This document shows, piece by piece, positions 37,841 through 43,110 of a DNA stretch of 64,000 nucleotides (position 1 is the first letter of the stretch; every line of letters starts with the position of its first letter). The notes under the pieces are model-generated. The model was not told the DNA's origin and searched no databases. It worked only from the letters and a program-made list of their open reading frames with translations. The translations under genes and the position numbers were made by a program. Source of the DNA: an uncultured Thermodesulfobacteriota bacterium (GTDB taxonomy: Bacteria; Desulfobacterota; BSN033; WVXP01); NCBI GenBank assembly GCA_964348095.1, contig CAYGBK010000085.1, positions 920-64,919 of the forward strand, in the 5' to 3' direction.

Positions 37841-39367
37841 TTAGATTCTGTACAAAAGATCTATGTATTTCTCAAGTAGTTCTGCTACAATGCTTCGATC
37901 AGGAATGTTGGCAGCCAACCCATATACTGGAGCCATCTTCCCTTTCTCATGGGGGTTTTCCCTAACATACTCAACAGCGGACCTAAGATCACTCAGAAAC
38001 CGTTCTGGTACCCCCGGAAGGGTATGTCTCAAAGTAACGCAGATATGAACAGACGGCGGTTTATGAAGACCATTCAGACTCCATCTGTTCTTTGTCATGT
38101 AGTCCATAATCCGGTAGATATCGAGGGTCTTTGAACCAAATGCTATGACCCAGAGGGGATTCCCAAGAATATGCAATTCAGGGATCTCCTGGATCCCCTT
38201 TCGAATCTTTTCAGATGCCTTAAGGATCTTTTCCGTCGCCTCCAGGTATCCTTTTTCTCCCGTGGCGACCAGAGCGGCCCAACACAACGCACTCAAGGCA
38301 CCTGGACGACTTCCGGCAAATGTTGGAGAAAAATAGAGACCCCCTGGCCACTCCGTGGCTTTGAAATATTGGTAGTGACGGAGCTCCAGACCCCGGTAAA
38401 GAATAACCGATGATCCCTTCCCAGCGTATCCGTATTTATGGGTGTCAGCCGAAATGGAGGACACACCGGGCAACTTGAAATCGAATGGCGGAATATCATA
38501 TCCCAGCCTTTCTGCCCACGGAAGCACAAAACCACCCAAACACGCGTCCGTATGAAAACCGACGCCTCGCTCTCTCGCCAATTCGGATAACTCTTGTATT
38601 GGATCGATCACGCCATGAGGAAACGATGGGGCCGATCCGACTATCGCAATCGTGTTCCGTGACATTGCTTTTCTGATTTCAACCTCATCGGCCCTGTAGT
38701 CTGGTCCCACAGCGACATGGACTATTTTTATCTTGAAATACTCGCCCGCCTTATCAAATGCGGCGTGAGCTGTTGAGGGAACGACGACTTCGGGCTTGGT
38801 AATCCCTTTCTTGTCTCGAGCCCAGTCTCTGTAGGTCTTCATCGCCAGGAGGATACTCTCCGTTCCCCCGGATGTGACAACGCCGCATATCTCGCTCTCC
38901 GACTCTGCTCCGTGCCCGATTCCATTGGCGCCGAGCATTTTGGCGGTCATCGATACGATTTCAGACTCATATTTGAATGCGCTCGGCCATATGTCCGAAT
39001 GCAGAGGGTTACTCTGAGAATTGATAGCGTAAACCCTGTTGAGGAAGTTTATATGGTCCTCATCTCCATGATATACGGCACCCGAGACAAACCCATCTTT
39101 CCATTTCGACTCCTCTGTCGACCTCAATTCCTCCATTTCCTTGAGTATCGCGTCCCTGTCCAATCCAGTTTTGGGGATTTCCGAAAAGGTCGCCGATCTA
39201 CTCCTGTATGGCTTGACGACGTCTTCAAGATCTCTCATTATTTCCTCGTATTCGGCCTCCACCCTCTTCTTCACAGGAGGTATCGATCGTGCCAATTTGA
39301 GCACCGCCCCCATGATCCGCGGATTTAACTTGCCACCATACTTCTCGATGACGCTCCTTATGTCCAT
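37841..39367 (-). CDS. PLP-dependent group II decarboxylase-fold enzyme, sphingosine-1-phosphate-lyase-like
   Basis: [17 protein letters not shown], plus the PLP-lysine block [18 protein letters not shown] that is typical of SPL/Dpl1 homologues. Confidence 0.65.
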
Positions 39368-39417
39368 ACCATGTCCTCCAGACTTTCATCTCACCAGCGG
39401 TAATTATGAAATGGCCG

Positions 39418-41001
39418 CTAGATTCTATTCAATCTTTTGTAGATCTTTCTATTACTTTTATAAATGTTCAAGAATTCTCTGAACAGCTCGTCATAGATTT
39501 TACGGTTTCCTGGATCGGGCTTGAAAACTCGAGTGATCTTGACGTGATCTGGAATATCATCAACGGTCAGGTACCCCGTGGAGATCGAGGCCAGGAAAGC
39601 GGCTCCCCGCACGTTTGCCATGATAGGGTCCTTCACCTGTCTTATGGTTCGGTCAAAAACGTCCGCATGGATCTGACACCAGACCTCTGAGTTGGCACCA
39701 CCACCGATCATGTTTATTTGGCCCAACCGCCTTTTGATGAATTTCTCTACATACGTAAGGAGCCATCTCGAATTGTATGCCACACCCTCATAAACGGCCC
39801 GGATAAGATGTTCCCGGGTTGTCCTCAAAGACTGATTGAAGAATGCGGCCCGAAGGGAATGATCCTCAACAGGTGTTCTCTCTCCGTAGAGCCATGGCGT
39901 AAAAATGACCTTATCGCTTCCTGCCGGTACATCTTTCACAATGTCATCGAAGGCCTTGTGAATATCCGTCTCAGTCTGCTGGCCCGATAACTCATCTTTG
40001 TAATGAAGGATGTTATTTCCCAGAAAAGCCAGACATGCACCGGCAGTCTCCTGCTCATTGGCAACGAAGTATCTGTTAGGAATTGCCGCAGGAAGAGAAG
40101 CCATATTGTGAAATAGGTCGGTCTTTTTGAACGGCACATGGCATGTCAACCAGGACGACGTCCCGATATAGAGATGGGCCTCATAATCTCTAACCGCACC
40201 AGATCCAACCGCAGCAGATTGGACGTCAGGGGCTCCCATCACCACGTGAACATCTTTTCGTAACCCCAGCTCCTCGGCAACTTCCCTTCTGATCGGTCCC
40301 AATAAGTCGATAGCCCGCCTCAGATCTGGCAGTTTATCTCGGTCGACAGTCGACATCCTGATTAGTCGATCATCATAGACAACGTTGGAGATGTCACGGG
40401 TATCTGTCACCCAGTGTAGAGCAATCGAATCGAATGACGCGGCAAATTTACCGGTGAACCGCAGGTTGATGTAGTCCTTTGGCTCGAGGAACTTATAGGT
40501 CTCCTTGTACGTCTCTGGGAATTCCTCCCGTATAAACAATATGTGAGCAATTGGGTCTTTCCCTGCACGGCCTGGAATTCCTCCGGTCAGGCGGACCCAC
40601 TTCAGCAGCTTCAAGACCCCGTAGCCCTCAAGTCTGACGAGTCCGCCCGTTATGTCTTTGACGTATTGACTTCCCCTCGAATCCATCCAGATAATAGCGT
40701 TCATCAACGGATTACCGTCCCTGCCAACGGCAACCGTTCCCGACCATTGGGTCGTACAGCAGACGGCCACGATATCGTCAACCGGAACCAATCCCTTACC
40801 CAGCACCACCTTCGATGTCTTGATGATTGCTTCCCACCATTCAGCAGGGCTCTGCTCAGCTCCACCTTTCGGAAGGAGGTTGAGACGGATTCCTTCAAAT
40901 GCAGAATCAACAATCTCACCATCCGTGGAGACCAACGCTGACTTGGGTCCAGATGTGCCGAGATCAACTGCCAAGATGTATTTGCGCCCCTTTTTTGACA
41001 T
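39418..41001 (-). CDS. FGGY-family carbohydrate kinase
   Basis: N-terminal ILAVDLGTSGPKSALV; full FGGY N- and C-domains. Start set at the internal MSKKGRKYIL. Confidence 0.7.
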   Translation of the reverse strand: MSKKGRKYILAVDLGTSGPKSALVSTDGEIVDSAFEGIRLNLLPKGGAEQSPAEWWEAIIKTSKVVLGKGLVPVDDIVAVCCTTQWSGTVAVGRDGNPLMNAIIWMDSRGSQYVKDITGGLVRLEGYGVLKLLKWVRLTGGIPGRAGKDPIAHILFIREEFPETYKETYKFLEPKDYINLRFTGKFAASFDSIALHWVTDTRDISNVVYDDRLIRMSTVDRDKLPDLRRAIDLLGPIRREVAEELGLRKDVHVVMGAPDVQSAAVGSGAVRDYEAHLYIGTSSWLTCHVPFKKTDLFHNMASLPAAIPNRYFVANEQETAGACLAFLGNNILHYKDELSGQQTETDIHKAFDDIVKDVPAGSDKVIFTPWLYGERTPVEDHSLRAAFFNQSLRTTREHLIRAVYEGVAYNSRWLLTYVEKFIKRRLGQINMIGGGANSEVWCQIHADVFDRTIRQVKDPIMANVRGAAFLASISTGYLTVDDIPDHVKITRVFKPDPGNRKIYDELFREFLNIYKSNRKIYKRLNRI

Positions 41002-42606: not shown

Positions 42607-42693
42607 CCTGCATCTCCTCGAACCAGATTTCTGGTTTCAATTCCATTCTGACCGAAACTATGCGTCAATTCCCCCAACCCAGCCCAGGATTTC

Positions 42694-43110
42694 TCAAACT
42701 CCCTCCTTGGTCCTTGCCAGCGACTCTTTCTGCCTAACTGTTTCCAAAAACCTATCTGCTGACACAATAATCTGCTCGTTTTGGCCCCTTGCTATCTCTT
42801 CAAATTCGTCGCGAACCACGATGTGGAAGAACAACCTGCGGCCATTGACCTCTTTTAGAGAGGCTTCTGCCCGAACCCTTACCCCCAGGGGCGTGGCCGC
42901 AAAATGCTCGATGCTGATCGACGTTCCAACGGTGATCTTCCCCTCTGGCAGGAGATTCTCTATGGTATCGCGTGCCGCCTGTTCCATCAGGAGGACGACC
43001 CGATGAGTAGAAAGCACCTCGGCACCGATGTTTCCAGTATGGCTCGCCAAGTCGTGACGCTCGACAACCATCTCCTTTTCGCCCCTCAAACCTCTTTGAA
43101 GACTCAACAT
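42694..43110 (-). CDS. Hotdog-fold thioesterase-family protein
   Basis: About 140 aa with the thioesterase-like pattern (HTGNIGAEVLSTHRVVLLMEQAA...). Confidence 0.5.
   Translation of the reverse strand: MLSLQRGLRGEKEMVVERHDLASHTGNIGAEVLSTHRVVLLMEQAARDTIENLLPEGKITVGTSISIEHFAATPLGVRVRAEASLKEVNGRRLFFHIVVRDEFEEIARGQNEQIIVSADRFLETVRQKESLARTKEGV

Follow-up and report, generated by a model that had tools for sequence, protein, structure and literature searches.

The sphingosine-1-phosphate lyase (SPL) of Symbiobacterium thermophilum, StSPL (PDB 3MAD and 3MAU, UniProt Q67PY4, gene STH1274), has served since 2010 as a model structure and as a surrogate in drug design, and we know of no report of a bacterial sphingoid-base kinase acting as its partner. 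StSPL cleaves sphingosine-1-phosphate (S1P) in vitro and in blood; its authors thought that it catabolizes environmental sphingolipids and called its natural function unknown (PMC3148216). The active site of SPLs is reached via a narrow hydrophobic tunnel (PMC10243590). The SPLs of Legionella and Burkholderia pseudomallei are virulence factors directed at the host, whose S1P they act on, and no kinase partner has been reported for them (PMC5234717). Here we describe an SPL gene located directly downstream of an FGGY-family kinase gene on the minus strand of a 64,000-nucleotide stretch of DNA (the window) from an uncultured Thermodesulfobacteriota bacterium (contig CAYGBK010000085.1 of assembly GCA_964348095.1). 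The first-pass annotation of this region had proposed that four minus-strand genes, encoding a hotdog thioesterase, a class-3 aldehyde dehydrogenase (ALDH), an FGGY kinase and an SPL-like pyridoxal-5'-phosphate (PLP) enzyme, work together in one pathway. The four genes and their family assignments were all confirmed by open reading frames (ORFs), Pfam and PDB matches, but the conserved unit is the two-gene FGGY-SPL pair, not the four genes.

One genome per GTDB species was scanned, which gave 491 lyase relatives, and the best 80 of these 491 loci were examined, including by tblastn with the window proteins. Outside the window, 69 loci had 1.7 kb or more of upstream sequence, and in 67 of these (97%) an FGGY kinase gene was found directly upstream of the SPL gene and on the same strand. 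The FGGY kinases of the pair loci were 53-76% identical to that of the window, except for a divergent one (37%) in locus L070, and the distance from kinase stop to lyase start had a median of about 38 bp over 68 loci, with several overlapping genes. The pairwise identities of kinase and lyase co-vary (r = 0.76, Mantel p = 0.001). Carriers of the pair belong to at least seven phyla and include Desulfobacterales, Chloroflexota (Anaerolineales/Anaerolineae), Myxococcota, Spirochaetota, Planctomycetota (Gemmataceae), KSB1 and Bacteroidota (Cytophagia), and the cultured strains Archangium gephyra (locus at around 10.52 Mb of NZ_CP102578.1), Archangium lansingense and Myxococcaceae GXIMD 01537 are among them. 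These lineages are free-living and environmental, from sediment, soil and water. A third conserved gene was sought by de novo ORF clustering over the 80 loci and by aggregated Pfam annotation of 120 immediate neighbours, and none was found; the commonest neighbour families were PAS/HD-GYP regulators, MFS proteins and Ser/Thr kinases, each of them lineage-specific. When the search was started from the kinase side, SPL adjoined the kinase in three of the four contexts examined (L174, L175 and L176). This synteny, with the FGGY gene directly upstream of SPL in nearly every locus, strongly backs a kinase step followed by a lyase step, as in the earlier suggestion that the kinase could supply the phosphorylated substrate of the lyase. 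As far as gene order can tell, the kinase very probably feeds the lyase. The pairing was not found in a search of the literature on FGGY kinases or xylulokinases with S1P lyase and on bacterial sphingolipid catabolism, in which subscription journals were thinly covered.

The two exceptions to the FGGY rule, L050 and L047, hold another kinase in the same slot, so a kinase of some type is located upstream of the lyase in every locus examined. In L050 (a Marinimicrobia metagenome-assembled genome (MAG), 2575-7878), a DAGK_cat/YegS-type lipid kinase lies directly upstream of SPL with a 25-bp gap, and SPL is followed by a HAD phosphatase, an EEP-family phosphoesterase and a FadR-like regulator. The DAGK fold is the fold of the eukaryotic sphingosine kinases, and L050 is the sole locus in which this eukaryote-type lipid-kinase fold takes the place of FGGY. 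A conserved pairing of the DAGK kinase with SPL was considered and rejected, as the orthologues of the L050 kinase in other Marinimicrobia adjoin an alpha/beta hydrolase. An Aminotran_1_2 gene near the L050-type kinase was considered as Spt and turned out to be an aspartate aminotransferase. In L047 (a Chloroflexota MAG, 1797-2420), the gene directly upstream of SPL encodes a 207-aa P-loop AAA_33 kinase that bears a zinc-ribbon-like CxxC...CxxC motif at its N terminus and weakly matches chloramphenicol-phosphotransferase-like proteins. A third type of kinase may thus serve the lyase here. Plasmid SPL-like genes, about 35% identical and found in amino-acid, peptidase or polyketide synthase (PKS) contexts, belong to a different subfamily and were uninformative. 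On the Burkholderia gladioli plasmid bgla_1p (NC_015382.1, 95335-99535), an SPL-like PLP enzyme (33%) is encoded between a SerC-like transaminase gene and PKS genes, and it may be related to PKS-derived sphingolipid-like products.

The lyase gene (37841..39367, minus strand) encodes 508 aa. A phmmer search of the PDB gave StSPL 3mad as the best match (8e-192, 642 bits, about 65% identity over residues 43-508), followed by the human SPL (1e-129, 436 bits), the yeast and Burkholderia SPLs (about 1e-118, 398 bits; 4e-118 for Burkholderia 5k1r) and Legionella 4w8i (2e-70, 241 bits). The first-pass annotation had asked whether the enzyme groups with amino-acid decarboxylases. It does not, since the SPLs scored 240-640 bits against at most 97 bits for the decarboxylases MfnA (1e-26, 97 bits) and GAD (71 bits), and so the original observation of an SPL-like enzyme stands. 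Pfam (Pyridoxal_deC) and NCBIfam assign it only to generic decarboxylase or class-V families. Eleven of the twelve StSPL active-site residues for PLP, phosphate and substrate are invariant in all 80 family members, and the twelfth, A97, is G in one of them. The PLP contacts of StSPL (K311, H310, D274, H201, G168, T169 and S353) are kept in the window lyase, in which the PLP-binding lysine of the HK motif is K311, and are invariant in 80 of 80 relatives. The SPL-specific phosphate and head-group residues A103, Y105, N126, H129 and K317 of StSPL correspond to A97, Y99, N120, H123 and K317 of the window lyase. Four positions separate wild-type StSPL (3mad) from its humanised inhibitor surrogate (5eud), with the changes Y to F, L to I, F to A and L to S, and we take these positions to line the substrate channel. 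These positions read F, L/I, F/L and L/M in all 80 relatives, and therefore the channel stays hydrophobic across the lyase family. The enzyme is a soluble lyase of the StSPL type without a transmembrane helix. Thus, the PLP enzyme is a genuine member of the SPL family (EC 4.1.2.27, PLP fold type I) and not an amino-acid decarboxylase. By analogy with the documented activity of the 65%-identical StSPL, it would be expected to cleave long-chain base 1-phosphates in a retro-aldol reaction.

The kinase gene (39418..41001, minus strand) is separated from the lyase gene by a 50-bp spacer (39368..39417) and encodes a 527-aa FGGY-family protein of an uncharacterised subfamily (Pfam FGGY_N 5e-35 and FGGY_C 3e-23). 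Its start is probably the ATG at 41001 and not the GTG at 41058 given by the ORF lister, because the ATG is preceded by a Shine-Dalgarno ribosome-binding site, GGGAAAGGGAG, and the 527-aa translation is identical to a database protein (P0121) named 'xylulose kinase'. The name 'xylulokinase' is carried by at least 120 homologues with a source name among the matches listed. The protein falls below every NCBIfam equivalog cut-off (240.5 bits against 380 for XylB TIGR01312, and 141.5 against 912 for NF011601), and its context in the pair loci is never a xylose locus. Its identity to FGGY kinases of solved structure is only about 20-23%, and it lies about equally far from the kinases for gluconate, xylulose, glycerol, AI-2 and ribulose. 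The AlphaFold model superposes on FGGY kinases at TM 0.72-0.78 in Foldseek; this search returned generic FGGY kinases alone and did not discriminate substrates. The D13-x-G-T-S motif, the catalytic D259 (GAPD259) and G433-G-G are invariant in the family, and 142 of the 527 positions are conserved at 95% or more. The substrate loop reads Q-W-S-G-T throughout the family; we take the equivalent loops to be Q-R-E-T in GlpK (R83-E84) and Q-M-H-G in XylB (M-H). A conserved family-specific insertion is present at about residues 113-150. In a library of representatives clustered at 50%, the relatives of the kinase grade continuously from 64% to about 31% identity without a sharp subfamily boundary. 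A DAGK catalytic domain was absent from the window kinase in Pfam, which assigned FGGY domains alone, in agreement with the earlier remark that this is not the fold of the eukaryotic enzymes.

We propose that the pair works as a catabolic or detoxification module. The FGGY kinase would transfer phosphate from ATP to the C1 hydroxyl of a long-chain 2-amino-1,3-diol of the sphingoid type, for which sphinganine, sphingosine, phytosphingosine or a bacterial analogue are the candidates. The StSPL-type lyase would then split the C2-C3 bond by retro-aldol cleavage and give a long-chain aldehyde and phosphoethanolamine, and in the window genome the inserted class-3 ALDH would oxidise the aldehyde to the fatty acid. 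Phosphorylation of C1 by a glycerol-kinase-like active site seems chemically reasonable, as the sphingoid head group is a 2-amino-2-deoxy-glycerol unit. We hold this two-gene pathway on long-chain bases, taken as a whole, to be somewhat better than an even bet. A long-chain sphingoid base is likewise the substrate that the residues and gene neighbourhoods favour, by a modest degree. Whether the FGGY subfamily would be a bacterial sphingoid-base kinase, independent of the eukaryotic DAGK-fold kinases, and would form with the lyases a widespread module for the degradation or detoxification of environmental or own bases, we rate as evenly balanced.

The first alternative keeps the same order of kinase and lyase, with a soluble amino-polyol or short 2-amino-1,3-diol as substrate, which would be converted to phosphoethanolamine and a small polar aldehyde. 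The first-pass annotation had leaned towards such a sugar-like or polyol-amine compound. The FGGY family consists of sugar and polyol kinases, and several neighbourhoods fit this alternative and also weigh against the lipid substrate proposed above. In L089 (2607-8959), an ALDH3-type gene divergent to the FGGY-SPL pair is followed by DhaK, DhaL and DhaM (an EIIA-HPr-EI fusion), a system for which the lipid model gives no explanation. In L058 (Chloroflexota, 1080-9431), two MFS_2 sugar-type transporters are located upstream of the pair, and in L070 an operon joins an MFS_3 transporter, an SDR and an XylB-like FGGY kinase with SPL; about 10 of the 67 pairs are flanked by MFS transporters. A second SPL gene, a divergent paralogue (41% identity), is also present in L058, and a 23S-rRNA-IVS-family protein is encoded between the two transporters. 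The remaining points against a sphingoid base are of several kinds. We know of no FGGY kinase that acts on lipids; all characterised members phosphorylate sugars or polyols. The AlphaFold kinase model is moderate (pLDDT 73) and weakest in its most conserved segment, residues 266-305. An orthologue 70% identical to the window kinase is found without adjacent SPL in L172 (7001-12689) and in L173, where the genes that directly follow it encode a FadB-like multifunctional enzyme and a thiolase; an aldehyde:ferredoxin oxidoreductase is also encoded close by. The displacement by the DAGK kinase at L050 is a single event confined to one lineage, because the orthologues in other Marinimicrobia are not beside SPL. 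Finally, sphingolipid-synthesis genes were looked for within the window and none were found.

Other evidence speaks for the long-chain base and against the soluble substrate. The closest characterised lyase cleaves S1P via its narrow hydrophobic tunnel, and in none of the 80 relatives do the channel positions lose their hydrophobic character. The ALDHs that adjoin some pairs are of class 3, the class for medium- and long-chain and aromatic aldehydes. Other sporadic neighbours are of lipid type: an amidase-signature enzyme after SPL in L033 and L068, a PF04185 phosphoesterase of the phospholipase-C/acid-phosphatase family after SPL in L174, FadB and thiolase downstream of the pair in L018-L020, L025 and L176 and right behind the kinase in L172 and L173, and MMPL transporters in three loci. 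No transporter or regulator was conserved with the pair in the Pfam annotation of the 120 immediate neighbours, and most loci have no transporter at all; a membrane-permeant or endogenous lipid substrate would fit, because nothing of this kind is conserved. We know of no amino-polyol with this head group that is abundant in nature. The sugar-like substrate is thus retained as the less likely option, with the hydrophobic channel, the DAGK kinase of L050, the lipid-type neighbours and the scarcity of transporters on one side and the DhaKLM, MFS_2 and MFS-SDR contexts on the other, and we consider it rather unlikely, although worth keeping in view.

The second alternative is a dedicated, co-evolved operon of all four genes, with thioesterase and ALDH as integral steps of the pathway. 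The four co-directional minus-strand ORFs together span 37841-43161, with gaps of 50, 219 and 87 bp in order from the SPL end. A consensus scan of the intergenic gaps gave no terminator-like or promoter-like site, with site counts equal to the shuffle expectation, and Rfam and tRNA scans gave no match above chance. The ALDH gene (41221..42606, minus strand) encodes 461 aa (Pfam Aldedh 6.5e-87), and its top PDB matches are class-3 enzymes, ALDH3A1 (4e-136) and human FALDH/ALDH3A2 (4qgk, 1.6e-128). The catalytic motifs APWN117YPF, E212LGGKSP, GQTC246VAPDY and EEIFGP are kept; the alignment to FALDH 4qgk ends at residue 446, so that the last 15 residues are not comparable with the C-terminal gatekeeper helix or membrane anchor of FALDH, a mark of long-chain specificity, and the protein has no transmembrane tail. 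The thioesterase gene (42694..43107, minus strand) encodes a 137-aa FlK-type hotdog protein (Pfam FlK 7e-30, 103.7 bits against a cut-off of 27); its start at 43107 was taken from the gene call, as the longest ORF reaches 43161. Its T/E/H triad aligns with that of FlK, the numbering of which we take to be T42/E50/H76.

Comparison with related loci gives little room for such an operon. In tblastn against the 80 loci, the thioesterase was found in none at threshold and the ALDH in L081 only. The nucleotide alignment to the sister MAG L003 shows 90% identity over the thioesterase gene. Beyond it the homology breaks off, to return precisely at the stop codon of the ALDH gene; the ALDH gene with an 88-bp leader is a clean indel. 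L175, whose kinase is 79% identical, has the order DUF4174, thioesterase, FGGY, SPL and no ALDH, and the close relative L084 has neither thioesterase nor ALDH. The ALDH is thus unique to the window genome within its clade, being absent from all three closest relatives. No ALDH remnant, which bears on insertion versus deletion, was found in the L003 spacer; most parsimoniously, the ALDH was inserted in the lineage of the window, because L175 also lacks it. Of 80 metagenomic ALDH relatives, a single one adjoins the pair, that of L089, in divergent orientation. L081 has an ALDH3 gene beside the pair in the same arrangement as L089, and these are unrelated loci. Three independent ALDH3 adjacencies (window, L081 and L089) appear to exceed chance, with fewer than 0.1 expected over about 70 loci by a rough, uncomputed estimate. 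The ALDH is clearly an optional part of the locus, and it may take part in the pathway in the window genome, although we put this at slightly less than an even chance.

The thioesterase is syntenic with the pair in the clade of the window (L003 and L175) and absent from all other pair loci, and in L003 (5538-6108) its gene is spread over three reading frames, by assembly error or as a pseudogene. An apparent thioesterase upstream of FGGY in Chloroflexi (44% identity to that of L003) disappeared on re-alignment and was a MAFFT artefact. The proposed pathway forms no thioester. The thioesterase is most likely a resident neighbour, and its participation in the pathway is quite unlikely; with synteny limited to one clade and no evident role, it could not be kept as the pathway member it had been taken for. 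The co-directional genes, the short gaps without a predicted terminator, the thioesterase synteny in L003 and L175 and the recurrence of class-3 ALDH in L081 and L089 are what favours a four-gene system, which we regard as improbable. Transcription of the four genes as one operon is plausible and no firmer than that, because the FGGY-SPL pair is the sole unit backed by comparative data, and the earlier claim of a four-gene pathway unit was given up.

The third alternative, that the adjacency is meaningless and joins an ordinary xylulokinase or gluconokinase to a decarboxylase or a host-directed effector like Legionella LegS2, could appeal to the database name 'xylulose kinase' and to the generic Pfam and NCBIfam families of the PLP enzyme, but it is hardly credible and is already contradicted by the lyase scores, with SPLs more than 300 bits above decarboxylases, by the synteny across phyla with co-varying divergence and by the conservation of the SPL phosphate-binding residues, besides a kinase that stays under all equivalog cut-offs and carriers that are free-living.

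The rest of the window consists of ordinary chromosomal genes (exopolysaccharide export, fumarate reductase or succinate dehydrogenase, photolyases, peptidoglycan enzymes and TrpD). The L,D-transpeptidase gene (35123-36856) is an intact ORF of 577 aa, and is frameshift-split in the near-identical GCA_011773285.1 (contig WVXX01000063.1, L001:12515-14162). Just past the MepK and L,D-transpeptidase genes lie tandem DNA-photolyase-family and photolyase-related (DPRP) genes (31898-34922), and the DPRP gene keeps synteny with the SPL locus in L083 and L084. A 353-aa protein encoded at 59915-60976 contains both domains of plant NARROW LEAF 1 (Pfam NAL1_N 2e-27 and Nal1_C 2e-58), which is unusual for a bacterial MAG.

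The near-obligate FGGY partner is a testable candidate for the missing kinase of StSPL-type lyases, and genetics is feasible because cultured carriers exist. If the proposal is true, the FGGY family would gain its first lipid substrate, the 'xylulokinase' annotation of the listed homologues would be corrected, a route by which sphingolipids are turned over in sediments, soils and wastewater would be indicated, and the question of what StSPL-type lyases do in bacteria would be answered.

Compared with the known systems, the lyase adds one more member to an established family, and the ALDH belongs to the ordinary enzymes of class 3. What is unusual is the FGGY-fold kinase as an almost obligate partner of StSPL-type lyases. 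StSPL and the window lyase are equal in length, lack a transmembrane helix and have an N-terminal segment of basic character, their PLP-, phosphate- and substrate-binding residues are all identical and the channel positions are hydrophobic in both; to our knowledge, no partner kinase has been described for StSPL. Legionella LegS2/LpSPL and Burkholderia pseudomallei BPSS2021/2025 belong to the same enzyme family, but the family of the window occurs in free-living lineages of sediment, soil and water and has its own kinase. Like the carbohydrate kinases XylB, GntK, GlpK, LsrK and AraB, the window kinase has the two FGGY domains, the nucleotide motifs DxGTS and GGGA and a catalytic Asp; it differs from them in the Q-W-S-G-T loop, the 113-150 insertion and SPL as its genomic partner. 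The eukaryotic exit pathway, from SphK1/2 or Lcb4/5 through SGPL1/Dpl1 to ALDH3A2, would have the same three-step chemistry as proposed here, with homologous lyase and ALDH. The kinase of the window has the FGGY (actin-like ATPase) fold instead of the DAGK fold and would be a non-homologous replacement; moreover, the window enzymes are soluble and carry no membrane anchors, and their genes are clustered, with the ALDH not being a regular member of the cluster.

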